64,000 nucleotides of DNA from positions 1-64,000 of the IMG/VR virus record IMGVR_UViG_3300044940_000489. The stretch is one strand, 5' to 3'. This document shows, piece by piece, positions 37,814 through 62,857 of this stretch. A program made the position numbers and the translations under genes. The DNA comes from a virus. Under the pieces are notes generated by a model. That model made no database searches and had not been told where the DNA came from. It saw nothing but the letters and a program-made list of their open reading frames with translations. Positions within the stretch are counted from its first letter, which is position 1. Every line of letters starts with the position of its first letter.

Positions 37814-39298
37814 CTAGGTTAGTGCCAAAGACCAACGCTTCTTGCCGCAATTCCATATTCTAAAATAGCCCTGCTCTAGCCTTAGCTGATGCTCAGTCTT
37901 TCCTGTTGTACGCTCTTGAGCCGTCTTTTTAAGAGATTGCTTGGAGTATCTATTGGGCCCCTTAATGTAGCTATAATCTGGCTTCATGTCTTCTTCCATA
38001 GTGAAGCCGCAAGCCTCGTAGACAGCGCCGTCGCTTATAGAGTTATCGGACCAAGTTATAATGGTCTTGTAGCGCATACGGATCAGACTTGGCACCGAAT
38101 GAGAGATTAATTTCTTGGCACCGCCAACAATACTTATTCCTGATTTAAAGCAGAGGCGATTCAGTACTATTTGGCCCGATCCTGATCCCCTGTGGTGTTT
38201 GCCGTAGGTGACTACGCCGACAATCTCTTCTTTATGTAATAGACCTACGGCATATTGAATTGAATTCGGGGCACCCTGAATATGATACTTGTTGAGAAAG
38301 GCTTTGGCCTCCGGAGCCACTATCTCGCGTGCATCACAATCTCTTGCGTATATTTTTTTATTTATTCCTAGCTTAGAAGACAAGTAGCCCTTTACTTGGT
38401 CTTTTCTGTCTCGCCACTGGTCTTCAAAAATGTGTATAACCTGCTTAATACCATTAGCCTTAGCTAGCTTGTTCTTATTAATGTGATAGTTTGGCCCCTT
38501 TCCCGTAGCTTCCGAATGCCAGTAAAGGCCGTTATACTCGATTCCGATATTGAGATCCGGAATATAAATATCAATTTCTAATTCGCGACCAAACTTTTTG
38601 CGATTTAGTGCATTAATGCCCAAAGAGCGTACCCATTCAAATAGCTCTACCTCACACTCTGATGTGCCAGTCATGTATCCAATGTTTGCGGCGCTAAATG
38701 CCTGGTCCACCATTCCAAGATCTGAAAGATATTTGGCTGCTCCGGAATATTTTTTATTAAACTCATTTCGAGTCTTGCACTCGGCCATCTTGTCTACACA
38801 GACATCGAACGTCCATTTTTTGTTGACAGGCTTGCGCGGAGCTTTCGGGATAATCGCTTGAACTTCAGACAGCATGCCAGCTTTTGAGGCGTACATATAC
38901 GCTTGCCTGTATGTTTGCCTAAAGGCTGTATAGCTCTCACATTGCCTAGCAATATCTAATACAGATTCTTTGGTCCACTTTTTATTGTGTGGTATTTTAG
39001 GGCTGGAGCGGAAGACCGATTTTAATTCTTTTAAATATCCGTTCGCAACAGCATGCTTGTAGGCGCCTGAGTATTTCTGTATAAAATCTGATATATTGGC
39101 GGACTCTTCTGTCTTGGATAGTACTAGGTCTTTTGTCCAATTAGTGACCGCCTGATCCATATGCTGGCACACTTGATTGAGCCACCCATTTCTATGCGCA
39201 GCGGCATAGTATGGCCGAGCACGCTTTTCAAACTCTTTGCGAAAAGAATATTTCTTGGCTTCGATTGCGATAGATTCAAGTGTATATTTTTTAGTCAC
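37814..39298 (-). CDS. putative homing endonuclease (PD-(D/E)xK, Hef-like) with N-terminal DNA-binding repeats
   Basis: repeated (K/N)WT...Y..A...G.L modules, EIDIYIPDLNIGIEYNGLYWHS, KIYAR.C, WSD, GYFRIWNCG. Confidence 0.75.
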   Translation of the reverse strand: MTKKYTLESIAIEAKKYSFRKEFEKRARPYYAAAHRNGWLNQVCQHMDQAVTNWTKDLVLSKTEESANISDFIQKYSGAYKHAVANGYLKELKSVFRSSPKIPHNKKWTKESVLDIARQCESYTAFRQTYRQAYMYASKAGMLSEVQAIIPKAPRKPVNKKWTFDVCVDKMAECKTRNEFNKKYSGAAKYLSDLGMVDQAFSAANIGYMTGTSECEVELFEWVRSLGINALNRKKFGRELEIDIYIPDLNIGIEYNGLYWHSEATGKGPNYHINKNKLAKANGIKQVIHIFEDQWRDRKDQVKGYLSSKLGINKKIYARDCDAREIVAPEAKAFLNKYHIQGAPNSIQYAVGLLHKEEIVGVVTYGKHHRGSGSGQIVLNRLCFKSGISIVGGAKKLISHSVPSLIRMRYKTIITWSDNSISDGAVYEACGFTMEEDMKPDYSYIKGPNRYSKQSLKKTAQERTTGKTEHQLRLEQGYFRIWNCGKKRWSLALT

Positions 39299-43041: not shown

Positions 43042-43566
43042 TTACTTTTTATTATGAGGGCTTCTGCGCTGAGACGGGTCCTTAAGGGTTCTTAGGTGTT
43101 CCATCATTTCTTTGGCTTCTTTGGCTGGCATTTTTTGGGCGTGCTCTCTAATAGAGTCCCCGTGCTCGGCTATTTCATGAGCTGCATGCTCAGGTGTGCC
43201 CGGCTTATGAGGCTTGTCGTCCTTTTTAAGGCCCCAAGATTTCTTCATAGCACAGCTCTTAACATATTTAAGAAACTTAGTGCCTGTTTCCGATTTCCAG
43301 CATTTTCCCATCTCTTCCGACAATTTAAGGTTCGGTGACTTAGGGGCCTCCGGTGCCTTAATTTTGGGCGCTCTTTTGGGGGGTGCGGCAGGAGCAATAC
43401 TCAGCCCCTTATCATGGGCCTTATCTAGCAGTGTCCCGGGGAGCTTAGTCTTGGGATCGGCTTTTTTAAGGACATCAATCGCCGCATCGATCTTTTCTGA
43501 AAGCTCTTTCTTCTTAAGCGCCACTATTGCGCCACTAACTTTTTGATAGAAACTCATTTTTTTCAT
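43042..43566 (-). CDS. basic putative inner-head protein
   Basis: Lys-rich; LKKAD, CWKSE, MKKSW motifs. Confidence 0.6.
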   Translation of the reverse strand: MKKMSFYQKVSGAIVALKKKELSEKIDAAIDVLKKADPKTKLPGTLLDKAHDKGLSIAPAAPPKRAPKIKAPEAPKSPNLKLSEEMGKCWKSETGTKFLKYVKSCAMKKSWGLKKDDKPHKPGTPEHAAHEIAEHGDSIREHAQKMPAKEAKEMMEHLRTLKDPSQRRSPHNKK

Positions 43567-46500
43567 TATGCCCTCTTAATCTGCTTTAATTTACTCATTA
43601 GATTGCCTAGTACTTTTTTATTAGAGTCATCTGAATTCAAAATAGTAGGACCACTGATTTTCATTGGCTCACTAATGGTAGTTCTATTAACCTCAACTGG
43701 GCCAGAAACTATCCTGGGGCCAATAGCCGCTTTCTGTACTTTAGGTGCAGACTGTTTGGACTGAAAAGGGGTCTGCATTTTGCCGCTCAGATCTGGGTCA
43801 AAAAGCTTTTGCTGACCTGGCTGCGGACTTACAGGCCCGGACGGAGCTGCCGTTGATACTGGTGGCTTGGGTGCGAATTGCTTCTTGGCATGAAATTCCT
43901 TAAGAGCTGCATCCTTTTTAGCCTGCTTCTCAGCTCGCATCTGATGCATCATTTCCTTAAGATATTTATTTTTATTAAGATCTTCACTTTTTTGTGCCTT
44001 TGTCTTCTTGTTTAAAAAACTAAGGATCTTGGCAGCCCTCTTCTTCTGTTGATCTTGTGAAATAGCAATTGGGCCTTTTTTATCATAATTTAAAATTGGA
44101 TCTTTGGTTTTAATATCATCACCGACAGGGTGTCCAAAATGGTCATAGGAGGGGTCGTGATGAACAGAGGAATCCGTACCGCTATCGTGAATAACGACTT
44201 TAGCAAGGGTTTTGTTTTTTATAAAGTTTTTTAAAATTTGAGATTTTTTCAAATTTTCCCCAATCTTCTCGCTTGATGCGAGCTTTTTCGATTGCTCTTG
44301 TTTATATTTAATATAACTTGGGTTTGCTGCTATAGCTGAACGAACGAGCGAATAATCATCATTTACAAGTCTTTCGTAGTGCCTTGGATCTAGATTTGGA
44401 TTTTCTGCTATAGCTGAACGGACGGACCAATCCTCATCATTTACAAGTCTTTCGTGGTGCCTTGGATCTAGATTTGGGTTTTTTGCTATAGCGAAACGAA
44501 CGGACCGCTTCTCATCATTTACAAGTCTTTCGTAGTGCCTTGGATCTAGATTTGGATTTTTTGCTATAGCTCTACGAACATCCCCATCCTCATCATTTAC
44601 AAGTTTTTCGTGGTGCCTTAGATCTAGATTTGGGTTTTCTGCTATAGCTCTACGAACCTCCCTATCCTCATCATTTACAAGTTTTTCGTAGTGCCTTGGA
44701 TCTAGATTTGGATTTTCTGCTATCGCTGAACGGACGGACCAATGCTCATCATTTACAAGTCTTTCGTAGTGCCTTGGATCTAGGTTTGGGTTTGCTGCTA
44801 TAGCTCTACGAACATCCCCATCCTCATCATTTACAAGTTTTTCGTGGTGACTTGGATCTAGGTTTGGGTTTGCTGCTATGGTTCTACGGACGAGCGAATT
44901 ATCATCATTTACAAGTCTTTCGTAGTGCCTTGGATCTAGATTTGGATTTTTTGCTATAGCTGAACGGACGTACCAATCCTCATCATTTACAAGTCTTTCG
45001 TAATGTCTTGGATCTAGATTTGGGTTTTTTGCTATAGCTCTACGGACGTACGAAACATCATCATTTACAAGTCTTTCGTGATGTCTTGGATCTAGATTTG
45101 GTTTTTCTGCTATAGCTGAACGAACGAGCGTATCATAATCATTTGCAAGTCTTTCGTAGTGCCTTGGATCTAGGTTTGGTTTTTCTGCTATAGCTGAACG
45201 AACGAGCGTATCATAATCATTTGCAAGTCTTTCGTAGTGCCTTGGATCTAGGTTTGGGTTTGCTGCTATAGCTCTACGAACTTCCATATCCTCATCATTT
45301 ACAAGTCTTTCGTGATGTCTTGGATCTAGGTTTGGATTTTTTGCTATAGCTAAACGAACATCTTTATGCTTTTCAGGCAATTTAACGCTTCCAGACAAGA
45401 TTTTTTCTATTCCCTCATTGTCCAAAACAACTAAACCAGGATTGGCCAGCTTGACCTCTTTTTGCAATTTTGGCGATAAATCGTTAAAATCAAAGTTCTT
45501 TTCAGATTCGTAGCCCCCGCCAATAACGCCTTTAATCCTTTTATCTTTTAGTAGATTGGCGATATCCTGGTGATATTCTTTTGCTGGCTTGTCGTTTCCT
45601 CTGCCCTTCATTTCTCCTAAAAAACCATTATTTGAAATAAAAGTCAAATGCGGTTCATGGTAGATTTTATCCCCAACCTTGTGCTCTGTTCTTAAAGATA
45701 GGATTTTATCCCCTTTGGTCTTAGATGGAACATTTCCGCAATGTCCCATTGCTTTGCCTTCATTCTCGCAAGCACCAACACCTAATCCAAACCAGTGTCT
45801 GTTGGGTTTAGTGCCTTGAACCACTTTTTGGGTTTTTGATGAGGGGCTGACAAGGTTTTTATTTTGTTTAATCCTTTCGTTATACGTGCTGTATGCATCT
45901 TGAAAGATTTTTCTTCCAGAATTCAAATCATGCTCTTTATCAAATCTGACTTTAGCCACCTCTGGGATATGAGTAGAACCCCCAAAGTGCTCCAATTCTT
46001 GCTTCACTTCTTTAGTAAAATCGCCGGGATTATTTCTATAATGCCTAGCGGCCCAAATCTGCCAGTTTTGATTTGGTAGGGCTTTTGAAGCCCAATCCGC
46101 GAATTCATGATGATGGGGTTCTGGCTGAGTACCCATCATTTGAAGAATATCTTTTTTACCCTTCTCTAATGGTTCAAAATTTGTTTTTAAGTTTTTTTCA
46201 ATCTTTTCAGGCAAATTCTTGCCCTTAGACTCTTTGTTCCAATGCTCTACAGCTTTTTTGCCGCCCAAAGCCTTCGTCCCGGCAGATGTATTTGCCCATC
46301 TTCTTTGTGCTTCCGAAGAATAAGGCTTCATTAGTGGCTTGTGCTTTTCGCCAGAAATATCCGATTCAGGAAGTCTTGGTTTTGACCCTAGAGATTTTAG
46401 AATTTTACTGGCACTTACTTTTGCGCACGACCCCTTTGAGTACGGCTTTTTGCCTGGAACTGGCGCATAACCCTCCCAGCATCTTTTGTTAAGTCCCTCT

Positions 46501-47255
46501 GACTTACTGCATTTCCAGCGCTTTAGGGCTGCACCTTTTGGGGTAAGCTTGCCATCTTTTGAAGTTGGCCCCTTTACTCCTGACATTCTTGCACAGAAGC
46601 TCTTTCTTCTTTTTGCTGCCTTGCTTCCCGGTTTTACTTTGCCAGTTACTGGACGCTTGAGATTAGAGCCTGTTTCGCGATTATATTTTTTTCTATAGGA
46701 ATCCTTCAGGCCGCCAGACTTAGAGTGCTTATTCTCGTTGTATCCGTGGAATGGCTTTTCTTCTTTTGCAAGGTCAGACTCTTCAAAGTCTGCCATTTCA
46801 ACTTTAATAAACTCTTCGATAGTGTCATTGGATATATCTGATCCCCACAGAAGATCTGCGGTGCCATCTGCGTGCTTTACTAAGACAATCTCATCTGACT
46901 GCGGCATCTCGCTTTTAGGCAGCGGCAGGGGTCTCTGCCTCTTAAGAGCCTCTAAAACCTTTCTAGCTTTTACTTTTGCTATCTCAGCATGTTGCTTGGG
47001 CTCAAGTACTCTGGCATACCCATGTGATATAACGCCAGTCTGGCTGGGGTCAGCTCTTCTGGCTTCTATTCCGATGTCTGAAACACCTGGCCTAACTGTG
47101 CTGACCATTCGCGAGACGGGATCTGGTTGAGAAAACTTTTCTCGCTCTGATCTCAGCTGCCTTTTTGATTGTGGCGACAGCCCCTCATCCTCTCTGGCCT
47201 TAGAGAGTGCTTCAAGTAAGTGCTTTAATTTGTTATTAAAGTCTTTTAATTTCAT
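43566..47255 (-). CDS. multidomain putative inner-head protein (DUF6321-like, CWxGY, PcfJ-like, LRV/HEAT repeats)
   Basis: RRKSFCARM..RWKC; CWEGY..KGSC; EGKAMGHCG..ILSLR..PHLT..EMKGRGN; 26-aa repeats. Confidence 0.75.
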   Translation of the reverse strand: MKLKDFNNKLKHLLEALSKAREDEGLSPQSKRQLRSEREKFSQPDPVSRMVSTVRPGVSDIGIEARRADPSQTGVISHGYARVLEPKQHAEIAKVKARKVLEALKRQRPLPLPKSEMPQSDEIVLVKHADGTADLLWGSDISNDTIEEFIKVEMADFEESDLAKEEKPFHGYNENKHSKSGGLKDSYRKKYNRETGSNLKRPVTGKVKPGSKAAKRRKSFCARMSGVKGPTSKDGKLTPKGAALKRWKCSKSEGLNKRCWEGYAPVPGKKPYSKGSCAKVSASKILKSLGSKPRLPESDISGEKHKPLMKPYSSEAQRRWANTSAGTKALGGKKAVEHWNKESKGKNLPEKIEKNLKTNFEPLEKGKKDILQMMGTQPEPHHHEFADWASKALPNQNWQIWAARHYRNNPGDFTKEVKQELEHFGGSTHIPEVAKVRFDKEHDLNSGRKIFQDAYSTYNERIKQNKNLVSPSSKTQKVVQGTKPNRHWFGLGVGACENEGKAMGHCGNVPSKTKGDKILSLRTEHKVGDKIYHEPHLTFISNNGFLGEMKGRGNDKPAKEYHQDIANLLKDKRIKGVIGGGYESEKNFDFNDLSPKLQKEVKLANPGLVVLDNEGIEKILSGSVKLPEKHKDVRLAIAKNPNLDPRHHERLVNDEDMEVRRAIAANPNLDPRHYERLANDYDTLVRSAIAEKPNLDPRHYERLANDYDTLVRSAIAEKPNLDPRHHERLVNDDVSYVRRAIAKNPNLDPRHYERLVNDEDWYVRSAIAKNPNLDPRHYERLVNDDNSLVRRTIAANPNLDPSHHEKLVNDEDGDVRRAIAANPNLDPRHYERLVNDEHWSVRSAIAENPNLDPRHYEKLVNDEDREVRRAIAENPNLDLRHHEKLVNDEDGDVRRAIAKNPNLDPRHYERLVNDEKRSVRFAIAKNPNLDPRHHERLVNDEDWSVRSAIAENPNLDPRHYERLVNDDYSLVRSAIAANPSYIKYKQEQSKKLASSEKIGENLKKSQILKNFIKNKTLAKVVIHDSGTDSSVHHDPSYDHFGHPVGDDIKTKDPILNYDKKGPIAISQDQQKKRAAKILSFLNKKTKAQKSEDLNKNKYLKEMMHQMRAEKQAKKDAALKEFHAKKQFAPKPPVSTAAPSGPVSPQPGQQKLFDPDLSGKMQTPFQSKQSAPKVQKAAIGPRIVSGPVEVNRTTISEPMKISGPTILNSDDSNKKVLGNLMSKLKQIKRA
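44318..45360 (-). repeat. 78-bp coding tandem repeat, ~13.5 copies (26-aa LRV/HEAT-like)
   Basis: unit xxxxVRxAIAxNPNLDPRH(Y/H)E(R/K)L(V/A)ND; CTTGGATCTA recurs at 44383 and 44461. Confidence 0.95.
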
Positions 47256-47660: not shown

Positions 47661-47693
47661 ATTAAGTTAGCGACTTAAAGTACTGTTTTTACT
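47661..47693 (-). promoter_or_regulatory. putative late promoter
   Basis: minus strand AAACAGTACTTTA-N7-AACTTAAT, 11 nt before ATG 47650. Confidence 0.55.
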
Positions 47694-48729
47694 CATTATT
47701 TTCGTCGTCTTCAGTGTCGTATTCTTTGTCGGCTTCCATCTTCCAGCCCTGCTTTTTTACCTGATCGTAATAAGCTCCGGGCGGAGTCTTTGTGGCGGCA
47801 ATTACGGATGAGCTAGTAACAGATTGATCTACATTAGCATCGATCAGTAGTTCTGGGGATATGCCTTCAATTGCCGCGCTAGTTGACTCAATAAATGTAT
47901 GCTGCACTCGACCTCTTACGTTTAGGTCGCGGGCAAATAATAAGTTTGTGTCGTCTGATGGGTTCGGAATATATACTGGAGAATACGAATAGGTCCCGAT
48001 CTCGAAGTTTCTGGCTTCAAATAGGGTTTTCTTATACCTTCCAAAAATATAAAGGCATAGGGAGTAAAGGAACATAAGCTCGTTTGGTTCAGTGCTGATG
48101 CATGTAATTGTGTAATCTTCGTAAAACCATATGGATTTTTTATTATGCCTTACTATGTCTCTAGTCGGCCTAATAGTCATATTAGTAAAATCCGCTTTAA
48201 GATCCGTGTCTATTAGTAGTGTATGCTTATTTAGGACTATTTGAATTTCGTATGCCTGTTTATTAACTTCATCGTAAACGAACTGCCCCTCAAAAACTTT
48301 ATCAAGGGATACGTCATCTGGAAAAACTAGTTCGCCCGTTGCTGGATCGTAAGATTCTGGTGTCACTGGACCCAGAATAATATTAGGGCTAGGATATGCA
48401 CCGCCCAAAGTAGCTGGATCTACGGATTCAAAGTGGTCTGAATCACCTAGCCCCTGCTTCTGGGGGTCCTCGCTGCCTCCGCCAATTTTAATAACGATAG
48501 CGGGAAGCTTCGAGAGATCTGGCAGCCTAGTTTCCATTACTATATTGATTTGTTTTTTGGCAAGAAAATCTTTGAATCTATCAATCTGCTGCTTACCCCA
48601 GCTATCTTTTAAGTACCTATCTTCCATAAATTGGCACATGATATCATCAATAAGATATGGATTGCGGCGAATATCGGCCAGGCCAATTCTAATGGCAGTC
48701 AAAATGATGGTATCTGTTGCGGCTATCAT
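47689..48729 (-). CDS. neck / tail terminator-like protein
   Basis: LPAIVIK.....E....LG, YTITC...P.....LY pattern of tail-completion proteins; upstream of sheath. Confidence 0.55.
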   Translation of the reverse strand: MIAATDTIILTAIRIGLADIRRNPYLIDDIMCQFMEDRYLKDSWGKQQIDRFKDFLAKKQINIVMETRLPDLSKLPAIVIKIGGGSEDPQKQGLGDSDHFESVDPATLGGAYPSPNIILGPVTPESYDPATGELVFPDDVSLDKVFEGQFVYDEVNKQAYEIQIVLNKHTLLIDTDLKADFTNMTIRPTRDIVRHNKKSIWFYEDYTITCISTEPNELMFLYSLCLYIFGRYKKTLFEARNFEIGTYSYSPVYIPNPSDDTNLLFARDLNVRGRVQHTFIESTSAAIEGISPELLIDANVDQSVTSSSVIAATKTPPGAYYDQVKKQGWKMEADKEYDTEDDENNE

Positions 48730-53189: not shown

Positions 53190-53837
53190 CTACTTAGTCC
53201 AGGCTTCTCCGATTCCAGAGATATTTGGAACTCTTTCATTGGGATTGTTTTTGGCGTAATTGCGTCTCCATGCTAGCTCTAAATTATATGAATCAATAGG
53301 TTTATAGGAAACATCCAGATCTTTGTGCTGGGCCATATTCTTAGAATGATGCTCCAGAGCTGACTTGTGATCCATTCCGGACATTTTATAATGTTTTAGT
53401 GCCTCATCCGCATGGTACAAAATCTTCATATTCTGGTTATGACGCTCTGCAAAATCATCAGGCGTTGGTTTTTGGGCTTCAATGCCAGCATGATGAGAAT
53501 GCCATTGTGCAAGCTTATAGTGATTTTCTGGAGTAGATAGGGACTCCCAATGCGCCATATGATCTTGACCGGAAGCTTTTTTAATCTTTTCGTACTCGGA
53601 CTGCGATTCCGATTTAAAAAGATTGCTGTGCCAGTTGATATTTTTTTCTACTTGCTCTGCCCTGAATCTTGCAATGCCGGGATGTGGCCCAGTACCCAAA
53701 ATCTTCAGATCCCCGCCGCGAGTTTTAGCGACAATCATTGACAGGCCACCCTTGGTGAGTACGTGCATGATCTCGCCTTTATCGCAATCGCCAATCTTTT
53801 CCATTTTTTCAATATCTTCTTTAGATAGTTTATACAT
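53190..53837 (-). CDS. putative inner-head protein
   Basis: AGAGGT RBS before ATG 53837 (MYKLSKEDIEK); LFKSE motif splits two segments. Confidence 0.65.
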   Translation of the reverse strand: MYKLSKEDIEKMEKIGDCDKGEIMHVLTKGGLSMIVAKTRGGDLKILGTGPHPGIARFRAEQVEKNINWHSNLFKSESQSEYEKIKKASGQDHMAHWESLSTPENHYKLAQWHSHHAGIEAQKPTPDDFAERHNQNMKILYHADEALKHYKMSGMDHKSALEHHSKNMAQHKDLDVSYKPIDSYNLELAWRRNYAKNNPNERVPNISGIGEAWTK

Positions 53838-56409
53838 CTGATACCTCTTTTGCCAAATTAGGCCCCTCAGTCCACAACATATCAATTATGTCGTCTGGAT
53901 TTGGAGAAACATTGATTAACTTTGTAACTAATAGCCATCTCGCTATTACTGGTTTTGGATCTAAATTATATTTTTCTAGTATAGTGGCCAATTGCTTCGG
54001 ATCTACGTTATTTAAAAAAGCTCTAATATTGTCCTTGGCCTTTTGTGATGTGGTCCTTGGCATTCTATCATATTTCTGTTCGGTACTCATCTTGTCTTTT
54101 ATTCTGCCGACCCTGAGGAAGTACGGAATAAATATATTTTCGTCTTCCTTGGGATTAAAATCCATTCCGGCAAATGCCGAACCATGATCTATAAGCTTGA
54201 TGGTTTTGCCATCGGTTAATATATTTTGTCCATGAGCATCGGCTTCACCAAGTATATACAAAACTCCGGCAAGTTTATGGATATATCCAGACTCTAACAT
54301 TGGAGCCAGAGTTCTCAGGAGCTTGTGCTTATCTTGAGAGTATACTTCCGAAGCTGGCTTAAATTGCTCGGGATACATTTTAATAGCTACAGCTGGAACT
54401 TCTTGTTTATTTTCTGTTAAAAGTTTTCCATAAACTGCTTTTGGGGTATAATTCTCAAGCCCAAAAATATCTTTGGCGACTTCATAGAATGCGGCCTCTT
54501 TTGCCACTTGGCTTCCAGAAAGAGATTCTACGGCAGGTCTATTCGGAACATCTACCTTTACAAGCCAAGAATTTTCTGGATCATATCCAACCACAAAAGA
54601 CTGATGTGTAAAATGACCCAGATTTTTTAGGCTATGGGTATGGCCGGCGCGCATTAATTCACTTATTTGTTTGGATATGTCAGAGTCTTTTTCAAAAGTT
54701 GATCTGAATTCTTCAAATTTTTGCCCGTTTTCTGACTTATTAAGTTTAGTATCTGAAGCCGTGCTTCTTGGATTTTCCAAAGCCAGCATTTTTCGATATT
54801 TATTAAACTTCTGGACATAAGGATGTGCCGCTATATCTTCCGGATGTTTTCCAAGAGTACCCGTAATTCCATTCAACCAAGCATGAGCCATGGCATTCTT
54901 GTCGCCATCAAATCTTCTCTCTAGCCTGTTCCAATGGGTGTTGGCTAATTCTCTTTCTAGATTGGGATTTGAAAGAACCAATTTATGTATTTTATCATGG
55001 TCATTAACATGATGCAGATTTTTAAACTCAGGATATTTTTCTCTTAGGGCAGGGCTTTTATTAATAATCTCAAGAGCCTGTAAAGGCATTATTCCAAATC
55101 GCCCAATAGCCTTAGTGCCGCGATTCAGGCCCGATGTAACAAGCGGGTGCTCTAATTTTTTGCCGCCCGAGCTTTCAATTTGCTTGATGGCATAAAGATC
55201 AGGGTGTAAGCTTACTTGCTCAACTGGCTTAATAATCTTGATACTATCTTTGGGGTTAATTGCGACTGTGGGTGCGGGAGCCATCGACTGCAGTGGGACG
55301 CCTAAATTGGCAGCGACGGCGCCTGCGGTAATCCATTTTTTAATGGCGCCCTTCTGCAGTTCTTCGTACGGTATGTCGTACTCATTTGCAGCAAGCTTCT
55401 TGCTTACCCCCCTAATATTCCCGGGTTTAGCTGGTGCCGCCATATTAGAGGGATCTTTAAATGAAATGTGCTGTGGTTTAACAGAGATTTTAGGATCTTT
55501 ATGTGCAAAAACGAGCTCTTTTTCTTCTGGGTGTGCACTTTTTTGGCCGTGAACAACAGAGTGCGTTCCAGAGTGCAAGATGTCTTTGACTGGCATCCAT
55601 CTACTAATTACTATGCCATGCCCTGCTTCTTGACCGGGAATCTTGTCTCCCCTCTCATGAGCAAACCGATTGGCCATATCCCAATCGCTTGTCCAGGACG
55701 ATAGCGGCGCTACAGGAATCTTGAGATGCTTATTATCGACTTCATTAGAAATATGATCGTGAGCCAAAGCATTTTTTATGTGTTTTGCATAATTGCCGCC
55801 AACCCCACGATGAACTAGTACATGAGGCTCTCCACCGATATTCTTTTTTTTCAGAAAATCGTCATTCATTACGTGGCGCTGGACTTCTTGGGCATAAGCT
55901 TTTAAATGCGGCAGAATATGGGACTCAGATTCTCCTGTATTGCCGCGATGATCTTTAATAGATTCATGGGCTCCTGTCAGCATTGACTTAACAGTGGCGA
56001 AATGCTTGGGGTCTACGGCCTTTTCATATCCATTCCACCAATCTGCGGCCTGCTTAAGTGGCTCATACTGCTCTGTATATTTAAAGTTGGGATGCCCCAT
56101 AAACTTTTCTTGCTCATAATGAGAATCTCTAGATGCATACGCCAATCTATTTAAGGTTTCTGCACTTAGATTTTCAGGCAAATTACTAGCAAGCTCAAAA
56201 AGAAACCCGGTTCCCAAATCTGGCTTACGCTCAATCCTATTTAATACCATGTTAATTGCGTATTCAGGCATTTCTCCCGAGGACGGCAGCCTTTGAAGGG
56301 CATCCCAGTTAGTTGGCAGGCGTAATGCAGTGTTTATGGCACTATCCCAATCGCCGTTTTCAATATGCTGATACATTTGTTTTTCTAAGTCTCTATACAT
56401 TAGGCCCAC
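53830..56409 (-). CDS. polyvalent protein: ADP-ribosyltransferase-like + lytic transglycosylase + PI3/4-kinase-like
   Basis: VHRG..SSWT..EKE; QIESSGG..AIG.FGIMP..AW..G; KE.A.Y..D.H.QN.L..LIDHG.AF. Confidence 0.75.
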   Translation of the reverse strand: MGLMYRDLEKQMYQHIENGDWDSAINTALRLPTNWDALQRLPSSGEMPEYAINMVLNRIERKPDLGTGFLFELASNLPENLSAETLNRLAYASRDSHYEQEKFMGHPNFKYTEQYEPLKQAADWWNGYEKAVDPKHFATVKSMLTGAHESIKDHRGNTGESESHILPHLKAYAQEVQRHVMNDDFLKKKNIGGEPHVLVHRGVGGNYAKHIKNALAHDHISNEVDNKHLKIPVAPLSSWTSDWDMANRFAHERGDKIPGQEAGHGIVISRWMPVKDILHSGTHSVVHGQKSAHPEEKELVFAHKDPKISVKPQHISFKDPSNMAAPAKPGNIRGVSKKLAANEYDIPYEELQKGAIKKWITAGAVAANLGVPLQSMAPAPTVAINPKDSIKIIKPVEQVSLHPDLYAIKQIESSGGKKLEHPLVTSGLNRGTKAIGRFGIMPLQALEIINKSPALREKYPEFKNLHHVNDHDKIHKLVLSNPNLERELANTHWNRLERRFDGDKNAMAHAWLNGITGTLGKHPEDIAAHPYVQKFNKYRKMLALENPRSTASDTKLNKSENGQKFEEFRSTFEKDSDISKQISELMRAGHTHSLKNLGHFTHQSFVVGYDPENSWLVKVDVPNRPAVESLSGSQVAKEAAFYEVAKDIFGLENYTPKAVYGKLLTENKQEVPAVAIKMYPEQFKPASEVYSQDKHKLLRTLAPMLESGYIHKLAGVLYILGEADAHGQNILTDGKTIKLIDHGSAFAGMDFNPKEDENIFIPYFLRVGRIKDKMSTEQKYDRMPRTTSQKAKDNIRAFLNNVDPKQLATILEKYNLDPKPVIARWLLVTKLINVSPNPDDIIDMLWTEGPNLAKEVSDV

Positions 56410-59400
56410 CTGTGGGTAGAGTACTTAATTATATCATTCCATGGCATATCTATGTCAACATTTTCTACATTTTCTAGTAGATTTTTAAGCTTTTCAATTT
56501 GATCTGGGTCCAATTTTTCTTTCTTTTTGAGAGTATCTGACCAAGTTGATTTGCCCTTAAGATATGGGTTGTGCTGCGTTTCAAGTTCGCCGTATTTAGA
56601 GGGCTTATAGCCCATCTTTTTAGGGTGCTGATTATAAGTAAATTGCATATGGGCTGGCACTGGCATAGGGAAGGATATTGGGTAAGATTCAATTTCAGAT
56701 TCACTCAGTAGGGGCCGCTGCTGTCTTATAATTTCTTTTGACTTGGCTTCCCAGTTTTCTGGAGTCATGCCCTGCTGCTTAATCCAGTTTTTGGCGTGGT
56801 TGACCGTTGCCGGGGGAAGTCTATCGCCAACAGATAGATCATTATTGATTATTTTTCCAATGTCCTGTAAATTGATGTACCCGGAACTTGACATTCCTGA
56901 CAGATCAGCTTTTTCTTTACTGTCCCAAATGTGAACCTTACTGCCAACTCGATTATTGTCTCTTAAGTGCTGCAGGAACGCCTCATGGAGTATTTCATTT
57001 GGATGCTTGTTATTAAAAAGTATCTCATTTATTTTATTATAATGCTCTTCTGGCCACTTGGCATGCGCGTTTGCGTAAGCTTGCTCGGCCTGCTGTTGGT
57101 TAATTTGGCCTGAGCTTAATGCGTCCTTTATCTGCTTTTGTGCCTGCTTGATAAATGACTGACCAAAATCAGACTGAATTTCATCTATATGTGTATTGCC
57201 TTGTTGATCTTGAGTATAGCGAACCCATCCAATAGTATTATCAAGAACTGGATGTTTTGAGCGCTTCGATGCCTCTTGCATGTTCTTAAAAGTTCCCCAA
57301 ACTCCCGACTCTTTCATCTTGTCTGCATGTTCTTTTGTGAAGTTTAACTGAAATACCTCAGATGGCTCATATGTATGGCGCTGCTCTTCCAGGGCATTCT
57401 CATATGCCTGCTCGTGCGTTACACCGTAATCGCCAGAATCGAAGTTGTCCATATGGCGATCTTTGGCCGATTGAACTTCGCGCTCATAAGAATCTTTATC
57501 TAGATACTTGTCGTCCTTCTCTGCCAAATAATCGTAATCATCTAAATTGAAGCCGTCTTCCCAGTCTCGTCTGGCATCGTCTAGCGCCTGTTCATATTCT
57601 TCATGAGAGTCGAAGTCAGTCTCGTCAAAATCCGGCTTAAATTGTTTATTATGATATTTTTTGATTTTACCATAATCAAGAAAATCACTCTTGTGTACGC
57701 CATAATCTTCTGGATTAAAAGCTTCTAAGTGATCTGACAGCATATCCTCAAGGTATCGAGGGCTATCTTCTGAGCCATAGCTCGTTTTACTAAAACCAAA
57801 TTTCATCTTGGGCTGAGCGTCTATGTGCCTCTGAATGTCTTCGTGATGAATATGTCCGGTGCCATCCAATAGATGCGATATTCCTAGGGCTTGCGGGGAG
57901 TGTCCGGCCAGCTCCAGATCTTTTTTGTGCATTTTCCCCTCGGAACCATTATTTATAATGTGGTCTCTTGCTGACCTAAGTTTATTAGTTCCTAAGGCAA
58001 ATTCAACTTGGTTTGGATCTGTATATATTCCTCTTTCTCTTAGTTTCTTGGACAAGTGCGTCCTATAATGTGGGCTTACTTGGCGATGAGCAAGCATCAG
58101 CTGATCCTCAGTTGTTTTGGGATTGTTGCCAAGCTTAAGCCAAAACGAATCGTCTTTATAGGGATGTTTTCGGGCCAAAACAGTATTAATTGCCTTTTCA
58201 ATATGTCTAGGCTCGGCATTAGGGTGATTAATAGCGTAATTGTTTGCTCTAGTGTCGCCGTGCGAAGCCAGCCAGTTGAGCTGCCAATCATCAAGATTTG
58301 CATCCTCATGCACGGGAACGCTTGAGGGTAGGGCTCCAGAGCTGGAGCTGAGTGCCTTCTGTACTTTGGCTATCCATGCAGCACGGTCCCTATCGATCGC
58401 TGGCTTTATGTGCCTGCTATGTTCTGCATTGGGGTGTATATGTATGCTTTTTCTAATATCTTCATCTGAGTGAGAAGCAATGACATCTAGTACTTCTGGA
58501 GAATACTTGCCTCGATACGTTGGATTGTCTAGAAGATCATGTAGCCTTGCTTGAGCCTCATCTTTTTCCCAGGAAAATTCTAAATTTTTAAGCGGCTCTA
58601 ATTTTTGATAAAGATCATTTAATTTACTCTCAAATAATTCTGGATCTTGAAATGTTCTGGCTGAGTGCTCTGGCATCGGCCATCCGTTACGGACCCTTGT
58701 TGCGGCTTCGTCTTTTATTAAGTCCTCAGTCTTATAGAGGTACGCCCTTAGCTTTTTAACATCTGAAGCCATAGCCCTATTGGGATCTGGGCTACCCATA
58801 GGTTTAATAGACAGATTAACCGACGGTAATCCATTTAAGTTTTGCCAAGCCTTATGGGCGTTCTGAGATACCGCGTAGTCGCTTTCTAGTCTGCCGTGAT
58901 GCGCCAAAGCAGCTGCGTATGCGAGCTTACCGTGACCGTGCCCAGCATGTTGTGGATTTACGTGAGACTCTGTGACTATTGGTTCATTTGTGTATGGCTC
59001 GATACTAACTTGGACTCTCGCCATATGAGTATCGTGTGGATGCTTAGAATCCGAAACAGCGTGATAAAAAATAGGAGATTTTTCTGGGCCATAATGTCCA
59101 GCAAAAGTATGATGATACAATCCGTTTTTAAGCTGCTTTGAGGACACGTGTTTATACGATTTAGGTATATCGTGCCAGCCGTCAAAGGACTCTAAGTTAG
59201 TGTTCTCAACCGGTGCCTTTTGTAGCTTCTCAAACTCCATATCAAAGTCTGCATCGTCAATTGACTTTTTAAGCTTAGGGGGGCTTAGGTCAATCTGATG
59301 TCCGTGATTCTCAGATGCAGGGGCCTCTTTTAGCGCAGAATCGTGGCCATAAACGGGCATGCCATAGCCTTCGTTCATAATTTCCTTGGCAGACATGCGA

Positions 59401-62246
59401 GCGGCCACAAGATTAGCATTATGCTTCTGCTCTTTCTCTTCTGGATTCATTCTTTTAAACCCAGAACTTGATCCCTCAATGTAACTAGATACTGAAGGAT
59501 AGTTCCTTAGGGCATGTGTGGGGTCTAAATTAGAAAGCCGCTGATGGTGCTCACGAAACTTTGTCGTATGGTGATCTGCTAGTTTTTGGTGCAAATCAAT
59601 GGTATCTGCGTCCATCGGAACGCGCCGATCGGATATTCCAGCCATAGGCGGATAGACTTTGGCTGCAGCTAAATTTTTATGAGCCTGAGCCAGCCAAGCG
59701 TGCGTATCCATTCCTGCTGCATGATCCTCAAGGAGTGCACCGACTGGAGTTCCAGTTGTTTTTCTTCCAATCTTTTTACGGCCCCCTTCAGTAAGGGGAA
59801 GCTCTTTATTATGGACTGGCTTAAAGCCCATAGATCTAGGCACTTTCTGGTAGCTCTCTTTATACACCGTATGCACTTTGTCAGCATTTGTGTGAGATGC
59901 CTTAGATTCTGGCGAGTGAGTGGATATTATGTTCACTCCGTTATCTTTGGCCATCGAAATTACTTTGTTGATAAGAGCTTCTCGCCAGTTCTTATGGTAA
60001 TTAATAATCTTGTTGACGTGCTCGGCCTCTTCAGACTTATCATTTTGATCCAAATAATCTCTGGCTGCAGATCCGAAATCTGACTGAACTTCATCAATCA
60101 TCCAGTGTCCTGGCTCATGAGTATCTACTCGTGCCCAAGCAATCGTATTAAGATTAGTGGGATGACCGGATCTTTGCGATACTTCTTGAATTTTTTGAAA
60201 TATTTTGTACGTGTTTGGATCTGCCTTAATTGGAGCAATAGACTCATTTGAGTGGTCTAGGCGAACGACAACCTGATCTCGATTGTTAATATTCTGCATC
60301 TTACTGCCATCCCATACTCCGTAAGAAATATTATAGTTGGTTTTAGGAATGGAGTCGCGAATCTTCTGCAATTCTTGTGAGGATAGTTTTCCTTTTTCTC
60401 CAAAGATCTTTTTCCAATTATCTTTAATATTTGGATGTATTTTATTTAAATGTCCAATATCAATAGAGCCGCCATTAGCGTCCGCATAATGCTGTGCCAA
60501 TTCTAAATGATGCTGTAGATCACCGTAAGCGTGCGTATTATTGCGATTTGGTATCAGCTCATCAAGTTTAGGTTTTAATGCAGCTTCTTTTTTAGCGGCC
60601 TCTAGGCGGGCCCTCTCTTCGGCAGTCCGTTTTTTATTTTCAATGTGCTCATTAACAGCCGGGAGCTTATCTTTCAGATGTTCAGGGAGAAAATCATAGT
60701 CTAGGTGCGCATTCTCCATTCTTTCGTCATGCATTCTTCTGGCTATTCTAGACACATCATCGGATATTGATTCTGAATGGCCTTCATAAATTCTATCCAT
60801 AGTCCGATCATCTAGGTGATCTTGTGGATTGGCACGCCTGGCCTCTAAAGCAGAATTATAGGCTTCCTGGGCCTCATCTCTTCGGGCATCATAATCGGGA
60901 TGGTCTTCAATGGAGTACGTGAAATCGTCGTCATCTGTTTGCCAATTATAATTTTCAGCAAGATGATTGTTGATCCATTCGTCTTGTTCCATTCCATCCA
61001 TTAGATCTGAGTCTTCTACGTTGTCTCTTATGTATTCACTTAATGGGTACTCTTCTTCTGCCTGATCTCTGGCATCTTCATAATAGTAATCATAGCTATT
61101 CTGAAAATCGTTTTGATTTTGAATCTTTGTTTTAAGCTGTTCTAAATCGTATCCGTGCTCATGGTTATCGTTTGCCCATTTATTGTGCATTTCAATTTGA
61201 TGTTGTGGGTCTATATGCTTATTATGAAATAATGCCCATTTTTGCTCAAAATTGCCATGACGTTTAATATAATCAATATGTTCTGGCGTTAAATGTGGCG
61301 AATTCCTAAGTATTTCCTTAGAAATGTCCGTTTTATATCCAAAGCCCGGGCTCATTAAATTATAATTTGTATCCGGCGAAGAGGCCATCTCTTCCGCATC
61401 ATCTATATCATATAGCTTAGCACCTTCATGCCCTATATATTTAGATATTATAGAATTTCTGTATGAGTGATCTTCTTCTCCAAGTAAATTTTTTGATGGT
61501 TTAATGGATGACAGTAGTTGTGGGAAAGCAGTAGCTCCTGCTTTGTTGTTATCTAGTATGTGCTTAATGTGCCTATTTTCGAGCAGATTTTTGGATGGGT
61601 CATTATGTTTTGAGTATTTATTAAGTGCTGCAACATCATTAGATTTTAATTTGTAATTAGTATTATATATAAGATGGTCGGCCAAGTCTTTATCGAAGAG
61701 CTTATGATTAATAAATTGGGATAAATCAATGTCCTTATCGGCACCGGTCTTAAAAATTTTAATTACATGATCTTTATTTAAGTTTTTTTGATCCGCTAGT
61801 GGAGTCAGATGCTCTCGGTAGGTTGAAATTGGAAATGAATCATGATTATCAATTATATGATGAATTGCCTCTGAAGATATTGGATAATCATTAATAATGT
61901 GCCGCAATCTGCCTTCATCAATATCCACATGTTTTGAGGTGGGTTTAACGCCGCCTTGCGACTGCGCAATGTGCGACAAAACTTTAGCCAGAGCCAAATC
62001 ATTATTTTTCTCGTTATTGTGTCTAGACTCATTTAGGTATTTTTTTAGTTGTGATATATCAAAATCGCTATGTCCGTAAGCGCCGGCCAATAAGTTGATA
62101 TATTCTTTATCGGTCATTTTGTGTCGGAAATACGCCGGGATGGCAGTATCGTCTGGTTTCCAAATAGCTTCGCCACTCTTGTCTTGTAGTGTGGGGTGCT
62201 TCAATTTGGCAATATATTTTGGTTCTGGAACTTTAAATTTAGCCAT
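56400..62246 (-). CDS. large polyvalent protein (1948 aa): two helical-repeat/E(I/V)QSD modules flanking a GNAT domain
   Basis: IAWAR..IDEVQSDFG and IGWVR..IDEIQSDFG; VNPQHAGHGHGKLAY. Confidence 0.7.
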   Translation of the reverse strand: MAKFKVPEPKYIAKLKHPTLQDKSGEAIWKPDDTAIPAYFRHKMTDKEYINLLAGAYGHSDFDISQLKKYLNESRHNNEKNNDLALAKVLSHIAQSQGGVKPTSKHVDIDEGRLRHIINDYPISSEAIHHIIDNHDSFPISTYREHLTPLADQKNLNKDHVIKIFKTGADKDIDLSQFINHKLFDKDLADHLIYNTNYKLKSNDVAALNKYSKHNDPSKNLLENRHIKHILDNNKAGATAFPQLLSSIKPSKNLLGEEDHSYRNSIISKYIGHEGAKLYDIDDAEEMASSPDTNYNLMSPGFGYKTDISKEILRNSPHLTPEHIDYIKRHGNFEQKWALFHNKHIDPQHQIEMHNKWANDNHEHGYDLEQLKTKIQNQNDFQNSYDYYYEDARDQAEEEYPLSEYIRDNVEDSDLMDGMEQDEWINNHLAENYNWQTDDDDFTYSIEDHPDYDARRDEAQEAYNSALEARRANPQDHLDDRTMDRIYEGHSESISDDVSRIARRMHDERMENAHLDYDFLPEHLKDKLPAVNEHIENKKRTAEERARLEAAKKEAALKPKLDELIPNRNNTHAYGDLQHHLELAQHYADANGGSIDIGHLNKIHPNIKDNWKKIFGEKGKLSSQELQKIRDSIPKTNYNISYGVWDGSKMQNINNRDQVVVRLDHSNESIAPIKADPNTYKIFQKIQEVSQRSGHPTNLNTIAWARVDTHEPGHWMIDEVQSDFGSAARDYLDQNDKSEEAEHVNKIINYHKNWREALINKVISMAKDNGVNIISTHSPESKASHTNADKVHTVYKESYQKVPRSMGFKPVHNKELPLTEGGRKKIGRKTTGTPVGALLEDHAAGMDTHAWLAQAHKNLAAAKVYPPMAGISDRRVPMDADTIDLHQKLADHHTTKFREHHQRLSNLDPTHALRNYPSVSSYIEGSSSGFKRMNPEEKEQKHNANLVAARMSAKEIMNEGYGMPVYGHDSALKEAPASENHGHQIDLSPPKLKKSIDDADFDMEFEKLQKAPVENTNLESFDGWHDIPKSYKHVSSKQLKNGLYHHTFAGHYGPEKSPIFYHAVSDSKHPHDTHMARVQVSIEPYTNEPIVTESHVNPQHAGHGHGKLAYAAALAHHGRLESDYAVSQNAHKAWQNLNGLPSVNLSIKPMGSPDPNRAMASDVKKLRAYLYKTEDLIKDEAATRVRNGWPMPEHSARTFQDPELFESKLNDLYQKLEPLKNLEFSWEKDEAQARLHDLLDNPTYRGKYSPEVLDVIASHSDEDIRKSIHIHPNAEHSRHIKPAIDRDRAAWIAKVQKALSSSSGALPSSVPVHEDANLDDWQLNWLASHGDTRANNYAINHPNAEPRHIEKAINTVLARKHPYKDDSFWLKLGNNPKTTEDQLMLAHRQVSPHYRTHLSKKLRERGIYTDPNQVEFALGTNKLRSARDHIINNGSEGKMHKKDLELAGHSPQALGISHLLDGTGHIHHEDIQRHIDAQPKMKFGFSKTSYGSEDSPRYLEDMLSDHLEAFNPEDYGVHKSDFLDYGKIKKYHNKQFKPDFDETDFDSHEEYEQALDDARRDWEDGFNLDDYDYLAEKDDKYLDKDSYEREVQSAKDRHMDNFDSGDYGVTHEQAYENALEEQRHTYEPSEVFQLNFTKEHADKMKESGVWGTFKNMQEASKRSKHPVLDNTIGWVRYTQDQQGNTHIDEIQSDFGQSFIKQAQKQIKDALSSGQINQQQAEQAYANAHAKWPEEHYNKINEILFNNKHPNEILHEAFLQHLRDNNRVGSKVHIWDSKEKADLSGMSSSGYINLQDIGKIINNDLSVGDRLPPATVNHAKNWIKQQGMTPENWEAKSKEIIRQQRPLLSESEIESYPISFPMPVPAHMQFTYNQHPKKMGYKPSKYGELETQHNPYLKGKSTWSDTLKKKEKLDPDQIEKLKNLLENVENVDIDMPWNDIIKYSTHRWA

Positions 62247-62857
62247 TATTCTTTACCAAAAGCTCTACCTAAATGATATAAAAACATGTGATCGTGGTGC
62301 CCAATTTTTTGGGCATGATCTTTAGCCTCTTGTATGGCTATTGATCTATTGTGTCTGTGCGCTTCCTGAAGTCGCCTAATTTCATCAGAGACGATTCCTA
62401 GTTCTTTATCCCACTCGCTCTTTTTAAGTTTATTAGATTGATCTCCAAAATTAAAGTTTAACTTAAAGTGAACTGGACCTTCGTCCGTGTGCATGACAGA
62501 GTGGTCTCCATCTGGTTTTTCTTTATAAAACTGCACTCCACTTCCATGCACAGAAGTACCAGCTTGAGGTCCATTCAAATATTTAAGTTCGTGTTTATTG
62601 TCCATTGAATGTATGACTGACTCCTGCCCTAGTTGTCTAGCCATTTCAGTCAGTCCTTTTACATTCTTTGGGTGCCTGACAAGAATAGAGCGCTCGTGCT
62701 TCCCATCATAATGACCATGCAAATCTAGTGCATCCTCTCCTGATTGCCTTAGAAACTTTACGGCCTCTTCAGTGCTGGGTACGCCGGAAGCGGTCACCTG
62801 ATGCTTCGGATTTTCTACAGAGAAAATAAAATAATGTCCAGGCAATACATGCTTCAT
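62246..62857 (-). CDS. SAM-lyase-like / DUF3293-like protein
   Basis: S.ENP, GHY....ERSILV, ARQLGQESVI. Confidence 0.5.
   Translation of the reverse strand: MKHVLPGHYFIFSVENPKHQVTASGVPSTEEAVKFLRQSGEDALDLHGHYDGKHERSILVRHPKNVKGLTEMARQLGQESVIHSMDNKHELKYLNGPQAGTSVHGSGVQFYKEKPDGDHSVMHTDEGPVHFKLNFNFGDQSNKLKKSEWDKELGIVSDEIRRLQEAHRHNRSIAIQEAKDHAQKIGHHDHMFLYHLGRAFGKE

Follow-up and report, generated by a model that had tools for sequence, protein, structure and literature searches.

We analysed the first 64 kb of the IMG/VR virus record IMGVR_UViG_3300044940_000489, which spans 119.5 kb and is estimated to be 74% complete; this stretch of 64,000 nucleotides is called the window below. On its minus strand, at positions 53830..56409, an open reading frame (ORF) encodes a single protein in which an ADP-ribosyltransferase (ART), a lytic transglycosylase of the SLT type and an atypical kinase of the PI3/PI4-kinase/HipA group are predicted to follow one another. 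We consider it fairly probable that this protein is a head-packaged, multi-enzyme "polyvalent" effector polyprotein of a phage resembling Myxococcus phage Mx1 (genome about 160 kb), cut by the prohead protease into three enzymes. The ORF was confirmed as one frame of 859 aa when read from a GTG at 56409. An alternative ATG at 56400 overlaps the stop codon TAA (56402-56400) of the ORF directly upstream as TAATG, and the protein database holds an 856-aa form (P0002) that is 100% identical. Thus, the product is probably 856 aa long and translationally coupled to this upstream ORF, which encodes 1948 aa (56400..62246, minus strand). Residue numbers throughout are those of the 859-aa form (P0001).

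The three-enzyme ORF belongs to a structural operon. On the minus strand, in order, are found the terminase (record 81024-82913, Terminase_6C match), the portal (record 77868-79952), a 313-aa homologue of head maturation proteases (record 73782-74723, phrog_1028, E 3.2e-9), a 282-aa ORF in the position of a scaffold gene (record 72367-73215, or L034:8370-9215), the major capsid protein (MCP; record 70963-72354), several further ORFs, the 1948-aa ORF, the three-enzyme ORF and the tail terminator (window 47689-48729); the protease, scaffold-position and capsid genes lie outside the window. The 282-aa ORF, directly upstream of the capsid gene, is very acidic and of low complexity and is probably the scaffold. 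The MCP was assigned on the basis of its 52% identity to the MCP of Mx1, and the capsid model PF05065 had no match in the record. Judged by such sequence comparison, the record is a large uncultured phage related to Mx1. When 50,697 cultured-phage records were searched with the three-enzyme protein by tblastn, Mx1 was the sole match, over query residues 375-825; the ART block had no match in Mx1 at E ≤ 1e-3. The gene order in Mx1 is alike: its MCP is closely followed by a pair of genes. The first encodes a 1479-aa "NUDIX hydrolase", which matches the SLT region at its end, and the second a 620-aa protein annotated as a kinase.

The window protein was aligned with 23 full-length homologues, 32-42% identical to it and encoded on contigs that reach about 160 kb. 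The AlphaFold2 model built on this alignment (mean confidence, pLDDT, 81.3) has three ordered blocks, residues 1-319, 398-545 and 563-859, which are separated by low-confidence, disordered linkers at 320-397 (with a helix at 350-368) and 546-562. Every motif from which a first-pass annotation of the DNA had read the three enzymes was found at its place: V-H-R201-G near nt 55807, S237-S238-W-T240 near 55698 and E295-E296-K-E298 near 55520; L351-Q-K353-G354, followed by a weakly hydrophobic stretch at residues 355-377; I-E412-S-S-G-G, A434-I-G436-R-F-G-I-M441-P442 and A508-H-A510-W511-L-N-G514 in the SLT region; L556-N-K558-S-E560 ahead of the kinase block; and K637-E638-A-A-F-Y, D724-A-H726-G-Q-N729 and I740-D741-H742-G743-S-A-F746 within it. 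Across the 24 aligned sequences, W239, E412, M441, P442, A508, A510, W511, G514, K618, E638, D724, H726, G727, N729, D741, H742 and G743 are invariant, and conservation reaches at least 90% at S238, E296, E298, K353 and K558. The predicted folds agree with the three assignments and the catalytic residues are conserved and in alignment, so that in the model three ordered enzyme blocks, ART, SLT and PI3/4K/HipA-type kinase, are confirmed to be joined by disordered linkers.

Since fold searches with the full model were dominated by the kinase, the N-terminal block was folded on its own (residues 1-325, pLDDT 92.3). Its first 112 residues (56074..56409, minus strand) form a helical-repeat domain with generic fold matches and without an enzymatic motif; it may serve as a packaging or targeting module. 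In the fold search, all rows covering residues ~115-323 were ADP-ribosyltransferases, with modest Z scores (C3stau2 7.0, HopU1 6.8, C3bot 6.7, VIP2 6.6), and a second search added Plx2a (6.8), C3bot1 and C3cer (6.7), CDTa (6.4), Tre1 (6.1) and SpvB (5.5). Foldseek returned nothing at E ≤ 1e-3 for this block, the ART rows (HopU1 0.14, cholera A1 0.25) standing amid helical-repeat noise. The motif triad of ARTs of the R-S-E type consists of an aromatic or aliphatic residue followed by R-G, a serine motif of the type S-x-[ST], and [EQ]-x-E. The domain (residues 115-322; 55444..56067, minus strand) presents these as R201, S237-S238-W-T240 and E296-x-E298; the E-x-E form of the last motif predicts arginine as the acceptor.

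Neither the window protein nor its 23 close homologues matched the curated ART families at E ≤ 1. A profile of six N-terminal blocks, run against 1.84 billion representative proteins, matched 152 at E ≤ 1e-3; these range from 45 to 2588 aa and carry the domain at the N-terminus, in the centre or at the C-terminus. Twenty-four of the most remote among them were taken for the tests that follow. In their alignment R-G and the final E are the sole invariant columns and the serine is nearly invariant. Nine of the 24 matched the Pfam family DRAT (PF07357; best E 5.4e-18) over regions overlapping those matched by the profile, and two passed its curated cut-off of 25 bits (P0166, 26.5 bits; P0158, 28.3 bits). 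Comparison by hhalign of the N-block profile with ten remote relatives (99.5%, E 4.8e-23) placed H-R-G on Y-R-G, S-S-W-T on S-S-W-T and E-x-E on E-x-E. With fold matches to ARTs only and the triad in register with DRAT-matching relatives, model and sequence comparison support the assignment of residues ~115-323 to an R-S-E ART of a DraT-like/C2-C3-VIP2-like clade, and NAD+-dependent transfer is predicted. Three of the 24 remote relatives carry Phage_Mu_F and one a portal domain: P0163 (518 aa) is an example of the former fusion and P0158 (914 aa) is the latter, which links the ART family to head delivery. Matches in BFVD include fusions to a "phage head morphogenesis domain" and a mycobacteriophage protein named ADP-ribosyltransferase.

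The central block (residues 398-545; 54775..55218, minus strand) has the SLT domain fold common to Slt70, MltE and phiKZ gp144, as found by a fold search with the model. In SLT domains the catalytic Glu lies in an E-S motif, which is followed by motifs resembling G-L-M-Q and A-Y-N-x-G. The catalytic candidate here is E412, invariant in 24/24 full-length and 15/15 domain sequences, next to S413, which at least 90% retain; the conserved motifs G-[ILF]-M-P and A-x-A-W-x-x-G follow at the usual spacing. Pfam SLT (PF01464) was matched weakly by three of the 24 full-length members (up to E 7.2e-4) and two of the 15 domain sequences (0.0037). The window's own copy had no match to PF01464, and a search of PDB sequences with the SLT profile gave nothing relevant (one irrelevant match at E 0.087). 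Thus, the lysozyme-like fold, E412 and the two downstream motifs support reading residues 398-545 as a predicted GH23/SLT lytic transglycosylase. The hydrophobic stretch before it, described at first as signal-like, is indeed present at residues 355-377; its hydrophobicity is weak, the best 19-residue Kyte-Doolittle mean being 1.03, too low for a classical transmembrane segment or signal peptide, a reading that we rejected. Its core is an Ala/Gly-rich helix (residues 355-373; 55291..55347, minus strand; 350-368 in the model) directly after the first L-x-K motif, and related loci have an equivalent helix at the same place. It resembles a signal-arrest-release (SAR) or signal-anchor segment, and its insertion into the membrane is putative.

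The C-terminal block (residues 563-859; 53833..54723, minus strand) contains K618, E638, D724-x-H726-x-x-N729 and D741-H742-G743. Foldseek with the whole model matched PI4K type II, PI3K and Vps34 (best E 2.9e-5); the modelled fold is that of a two-lobed kinase, nearest to PI4K type II, PI3K and HipA. We collected 28 kinase domains from IMG/VR proteins of all architectures; K618, E638, D724, N729 and D741-H742-G743 are invariant in all of them, and H726 is present in at least 90%. PF00454 was matched by 20 of the 28 (best E 7.5e-11), HipA_C by six and Fam20C by five; among the 24 full-length family members 14 matched PF00454, and one relative (P0026) passes its cut-off, with 34.7 bits against 27.1. 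The window's own kinase did not match PF00454 at E ≤ 0.01 and stayed below every Pfam threshold. When PDB sequences were searched with the kinase profile, the sole matches were to ATM, Tel1 and PI3K, in their catalytic-loop and DFG-like segments, and these were weak (E 0.012 or weaker). Kinase look-alike clusters in the ESM Atlas, which we treat as leads only, include one with PF00454 in 38% of its members and one with HipA_2 in 76%. Fold match, invariant catalytic set and the PF00454 matches of relatives together support the proposed membership in the PI3/4K-HipA group. The nearest fold in the model is that of a lipid kinase, so that the label "protein-modifying" given in the first-pass annotation is putative for this enzyme. 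Proteins with a PI3K/PI4K domain occur in BFVD in other tailed viruses, haloarchaeal ones included, and a pattern scan of cellular genome contigs for the kinase family found one locus only, on a contig of a metagenome-assembled genome. A literature search on PI4-kinase or HipA in phage virions gave no virion-borne kinase among the matches listed. In phages, annotation of this fold appears to go no further than "kinase" or "PI3K/PI4K domain", and we found no study of it.

The three modules are exchangeable. Among 30 related loci in IMG/VR, the kinase is present in 28 ORFs of 28 loci, the SLT domain in 14 ORFs of 13 loci and the N-block in five. The three-enzyme layout recurs in four loci (L003-L006). 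Elsewhere, the SLT domain forms the C-terminal end of an upstream 693-aa ORF and the N-block is fused directly to the kinase (L007); or proteins of 1500-1700 aa combine an SLT domain, other sequence and a C-terminal kinase (L008, L013, L019, L030); or a GNAT-bearing insert takes the place of the SLT domain between N-block and kinase (P0026). Many loci encode a kinase-only protein of about 450 aa, and one (L017) has, besides its embedded SLT copy, a separate 165-aa SLT protein with an ordinary signal peptide. In every case the kinase occupies the C-terminus. Just ahead of the junction motif and kinase, many of the proteins from L010-L030, and P0026, also share a stretch of about 40 conserved residues (…E-D-G-D…A-A-L-x-A-Y-G-L-P…N-L-K-A-L…); the window protein does not have it, and the SLT domain occupies that place.

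The feature common to these arrangements, and new here, is a short L-x-K-small motif that marks the module junctions in relatives of every architecture. In the window protein, motif 1, L351-Q-K353-G354 (55348..55359, minus strand), is in linker 320-397 and motif 2, L556-N-K558-S-E560 (54730..54744, minus strand), is in linker 546-562; both are proposed head-protease sites. K353 and K558 are each kept in 23 of the 24 sequences, E560 in 21, and the flanks are gapped and variable. Using the strict form [LIVMF]-x-K-[SGNA] and random windows in the same proteins for the expectation, we found that 24 of 28 ORFs have the motif no more than 16 residues before the kinase domain (2.6 expected) and that 13 of 14 have it 25-60 residues before the SLT domain (2.9 expected), neither count being reached in 20000 simulations, although these figures overstate independence because the compared sequences are related. 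The pre-SLT copies are directly followed by the Ala/Gly-rich helix, and the sole SLT ORF without an upstream motif is the stand-alone one with an ordinary signal peptide.

The same motif, extended by an acidic residue ([LIVMF]-x-K-[SGNA]-[ED]), occurs seven times in the 282-aa scaffold-position ORF, against 0.57 expected (0/1000 shuffles); the counterparts in Mx1 and in L029 each have four copies against 0.27 (0/1000 and 0/300 shuffles, respectively). Genome-wide, the structural operon has 15 copies where 4.9 are expected, and the rest of the genome nine where 7.7 are expected. An L-x-K-A is found at the same N-terminal place of the capsid protein in 7/7 distinct sequences. The 313-aa protease homologue, which had no match among PDB sequences, is 35% identical to the N-terminal part of the annotated prohead protease of Mx1. 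In its C-terminal part, and likewise in Mx1, there is a stretch (L-K-K-T-L-T-A-G-G-x-N-A-A-P…Q-G-S-A-L-Q) very similar to the MCP N-terminus; it may be a targeting or recognition element common to both proteins.

Scaffolds are classical multi-site substrates of prohead proteases, and the head-protease site of T4 is L-x-E. In phage SPN3US, the head protease, gp245, is described as processing head-internal and ejected proteins at a short motif, A-X-E (PMC10052503, from which we draw on a part). On both grounds, the nature of scaffolds as substrates and the short-motif processing in SPN3US, we read L-x-K-small as the head-protease site of this clade, probably cut, by analogy, after the Lys. As in the account of SPN3US, a short linear motif is common to scaffold-like and internal head proteins, whereas the sites given there have Glu and those predicted here from sequence have Lys instead, as L-x-K-(S/G/N/A), usually followed by E or D (PMC10052503). 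The presence of the motif in both the scaffold-position protein and the MCP N-terminus points to a head protease acting inside proheads. The initial suggestion that one precursor yields several enzymes thereby gains independent support, from the junction motif across architectures, its enrichment in the scaffold and the presence of a protease gene; that the precursor is cut is what we infer.

The 1948-aa ORF upstream shares this pattern. It is a fusion, its first ~1016 residues being a separate protein in three of the related loci (L003, L004 and L006), and at the fusion junction (residues 992-1011) there are two more copies of L-x-K-small. It probably belongs with the three-enzyme protein in one set of cargo proteins. 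Pfam and PHROG searches with it gave no match. It contains two copies of an undescribed domain, at ~593-819 and ~1622-1777, which both correspond to one and the same region of large proteins encoded in L008, L015 and L018; the ESM Atlas gave nothing useful for this repeated domain (best score 0.84).

We propose the following course of events. The polyprotein would be made late, along with head and tail proteins and coupled to its 1948-aa neighbour. In the prohead interior, the head-maturation protease would cut it at the two L-x-K-(G/S/N/A) linker sites, yielding the helical domain with the R-S-E ART (~39 kDa), the weakly hydrophobic helix with the GH23 lytic transglycosylase (~22 kDa) and the PI3/4K/HipA-type kinase (~34 kDa). 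At the next infection these products would leave the head with the DNA or ahead of it; the transglycosylase would open the peptidoglycan locally, and the ART and kinase would act on host targets in the cytoplasm, in takeover or counter-defence.

Several points weigh against this proposal. The window protein alone had no Pfam family above cut-off (DUF3319 at E 0.048 and DUF4135 at E 0.13 are sub-threshold) and no match in PHROGs, and searches of PDB sequences returned 0 chains both for the protein and for the full-length profile. A literature search on Myxococcus phage Mx1 and a kinase found nothing. R201 is present in 21/24 members, being K in P0021 and P0023 and H in P0025, and P0025 also lacks the last Glu of E-x-E; ART activity is consequently not expected to be kept in all members. 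The helix before the SLT domain has too little hydrophobicity to be called a membrane anchor with confidence. The number of motif copies inside the three-enzyme protein is not above chance (2 against 2.0 expected), so that the case there rests on position and conservation; site 1 does not have the acidic residue seen after the motif in scaffold copies, and the relatedness of the sequences behind the simulations counts here as well. Finally, no other muralytic gene was found in the 74%-complete record with PF00959, PF01510 or PF01464, and the SLT profile matched this copy only, so the domain may have a role in lysis.

A first alternative is that the protein is packaged and ejected as a single uncleaved polypeptide, like T7 gp16, a core protein ejected into the cell envelope, where its transglycosylase domain works in the periplasm and its remainder helps to form or cross the trans-envelope conduit. 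The L-x-K-small motifs would then be packaging or interaction signals; the cutting is, after all, something that we infer. By annotation, gp16 is an internal virion protein with an endolysin domain, used at entry, and it thus resembles the window protein in having an SLT-type domain within a large protein. It differs in having neither ART nor kinase and in having its lytic transglycosylase at the N-terminus, whereas the SLT domain here is internal, with linker motifs on both sides and a weakly hydrophobic helix before it. Between an A-Y-N-x-G-type region of gp16 and the SLT profile, hhalign gave a weak match (22.7%, E 9e-4) in which only the last motif (A-L-A-Y-N-Q-G) is aligned, too little for membership. 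The order ART, helix-SLT, kinase argues for cleavage, because in an uncut chain the SLT domain could not be periplasmic while the enzymes on both sides of it are cytoplasmic: with SLT in mid-chain, the C-terminal kinase would be left in the ATP-free periplasm or would have to be threaded inward whole. Moreover, the motif lies in disordered linkers exactly at the borders of exchangeable modules, and three divergent phages have it at high enrichment in their scaffold-position protein, as would be expected of a protease site more than of an interaction signal. We regard an uncleaved protein as unlikely, while bearing in mind that the virion RNA polymerase of N4 is described as packaged unprocessed (PMC5512222, in the portion used here).

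The order of motif, helix and muralytic domain would also suit a late enzyme that never enters the virion. On this view the helix and SLT domain would make up a SAR-type endolysin, and proteins of the host or the phage would be the targets of the ART and kinase, late in infection and within the producing cell. The layout does resemble that of SAR endolysins, and the lack of another muralytic gene mentioned above speaks for this reading, although the search was limited to three other families and the record is only 74% complete. However, an SLT domain in the middle of 1500-1700-aa proteins (L013, L019, L030), at the end of a 693-aa ORF (L007) or running into the end of a 1479-aa "NUDIX hydrolase" in Mx1 is atypical for endolysins, and L017 has its separate signal-peptide SLT besides the embedded copy. 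The position of the gene between head and tail genes, the motif that it has in common with the scaffold and the fusions of remote ART relatives to MuF and portal head proteins also stand against a non-virion enzyme, and we give this alternative little weight. Least likely of all is a tail-associated protein (tail-lumen, tape-measure-like or baseplate-hub cargo) whose SLT domain digests the wall at the tail tip, processed or not by another protease: the gene is just upstream of the tail genes, with "tail fiber" or adaptor-like phrog_772 matches on an upstream ORF (record 64316-65197), one BFVD row is a tape-measure protein (weak, E 0.015) and SLT and lysozyme domains are described as common in tail proteins (PMC5512222, same portion), but the junction motif is common to the scaffold-position protein and the MCP N-terminus, ART-domain relatives are fused to head proteins and the Mx1 pair closely follows the MCP.

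Other genes nearby deserve mention. Downstream, a 231-aa ORF read from TTG (window 53190-53885, minus strand) shares 56 nt with the end of the kinase ORF, its own true start probably lying later; it had no Pfam or PHROG family match, contains L-F-K-S-E and three more L/V/I-x-K-small motifs and may be a further processed head protein. Upstream of the 1948-aa ORF, a 203-aa ORF (window 62246-62857, minus strand) has a sub-threshold S-adenosylmethionine lyase match (E 0.0014, 19 bits against a cut-off of 28). Adjoining the portal gene, outside the window, a 612-aa ORF (record 76020-77858, minus strand) contains an intein, with matches to Intein_splicing, PT-HINT and a DUF559/HNH-type endonuclease. 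The following, too, are on the minus strand of the window: an IS605 OrfB/TnpB-type gene within the phage genome (36393-37583; OrfB_IS605 E 1.4e-28, and a Cas12f1-like TNB match); adjoining it, a 494-aa ORF with a Mom-family domain (37814-39298; E 1.6e-8), possibly a DNA-modification enzyme; and, amid the tail genes, a 1229-aa ORF (43566-47255) with DUF6321 and many LRV/HEAT-type repeats.

The proposed polyprotein has precedents among known systems. T4 Alt is reportedly processed by the prohead protease, and Jamet and coworkers are said to have described MuF-fused phage effector or toxin domains in 2017. By annotation and in the portion of PMC5512222 used here, Alt is a head-packaged ART injected with the DNA; the window protein likewise has an R-S-E ART made late with virion genes, here as one of three enzymes in a polyprotein, whereas Alt is a single-enzyme protein. 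Homology was rejected (hhalign of the N-domain profile, 0.07%) and Alt is a functional analogue only. Head-packaged ARTs fused to MuF or portal are described in part of Iyer et al. 2022 (PMC9503650). Remote relatives of our ART have just such partners, while the window protein itself has neither MuF nor portal and begins with the 112-residue helical repeat. The kinase resembles PI4K type II, PI3K/PIKK and HipA/HipT/CtkA in the segments aligned with ATM and PI3K and in the PF00454 and HipA_C matches of family members; it differs from them in having D-H-G instead of D-F-G and in being a family of phage contigs.

The closest parallel is with the polyvalent proteins of phages and conjugative elements, single polypeptides with several unrelated effector domains, whose genes lie among virion or transfer genes and for which packaging and injection are predicted (Iyer, Burroughs, Anand, de Souza and Aravind 2017, PMC5512222). 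The catalogue in the portion of that paper used here includes ARTs, kinases, GNATs and lysozyme/transglycosylase domains. Like those proteins, the window protein has three unrelated enzyme domains in one ORF of the head-tail operon, with domain shuffling among relatives. In the same portion, the ARTs are of the H-Y-D type and the kinase is a truncated Ser/Thr/Tyr kinase; here they are of the R-S-E, DRAT-like type and of the PI3/4K/HipA type, respectively, and conserved L-x-K-small junctions are found instead of a metallopeptidase module (PMC5512222). The concept of polyvalent proteins and of head-packaged ARTs is therefore known, and what is added consists of other enzyme families at both ends and a protease-site "grammar"; the supplementary architectures of that paper may list related forms. 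As a tentative extension, which we hold to be possible but doubtful, a "cassette code" may operate in which the Lys-type head-protease site strings exchangeable ART, SLT, GNAT, NUDIX and kinase modules into injected polyproteins cut in the prohead; the C-terminal PI4K-type kinase would then be the first virion-delivered kinase and, in view of its nearest fold, might have as its target, where the phage enters, a membrane lipid or some other non-protein molecule rather than proteins.

Virion-delivered phage proteins decide the first minutes of infection, in takeover and escape from defence, because their action precedes all phage gene expression. T4 Alt is the classic example; polyvalent proteins have been predicted by comparative genomics and few have been studied at the bench. 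The family described here offers a compact, testable example, with three recognisable enzymes whose catalytic residues are intact and a cultured relative, Mx1, that grows on Myxococcus. It also includes an uncharacterised family of phage kinases, the substrate of which could be lipid, protein or other. The processing rule, L-x-K-small, is specific and falsifiable. If it is true, the Lys-type protease motif could predict from sequence the head-internal cargo proteins across this group of uncultured phages.

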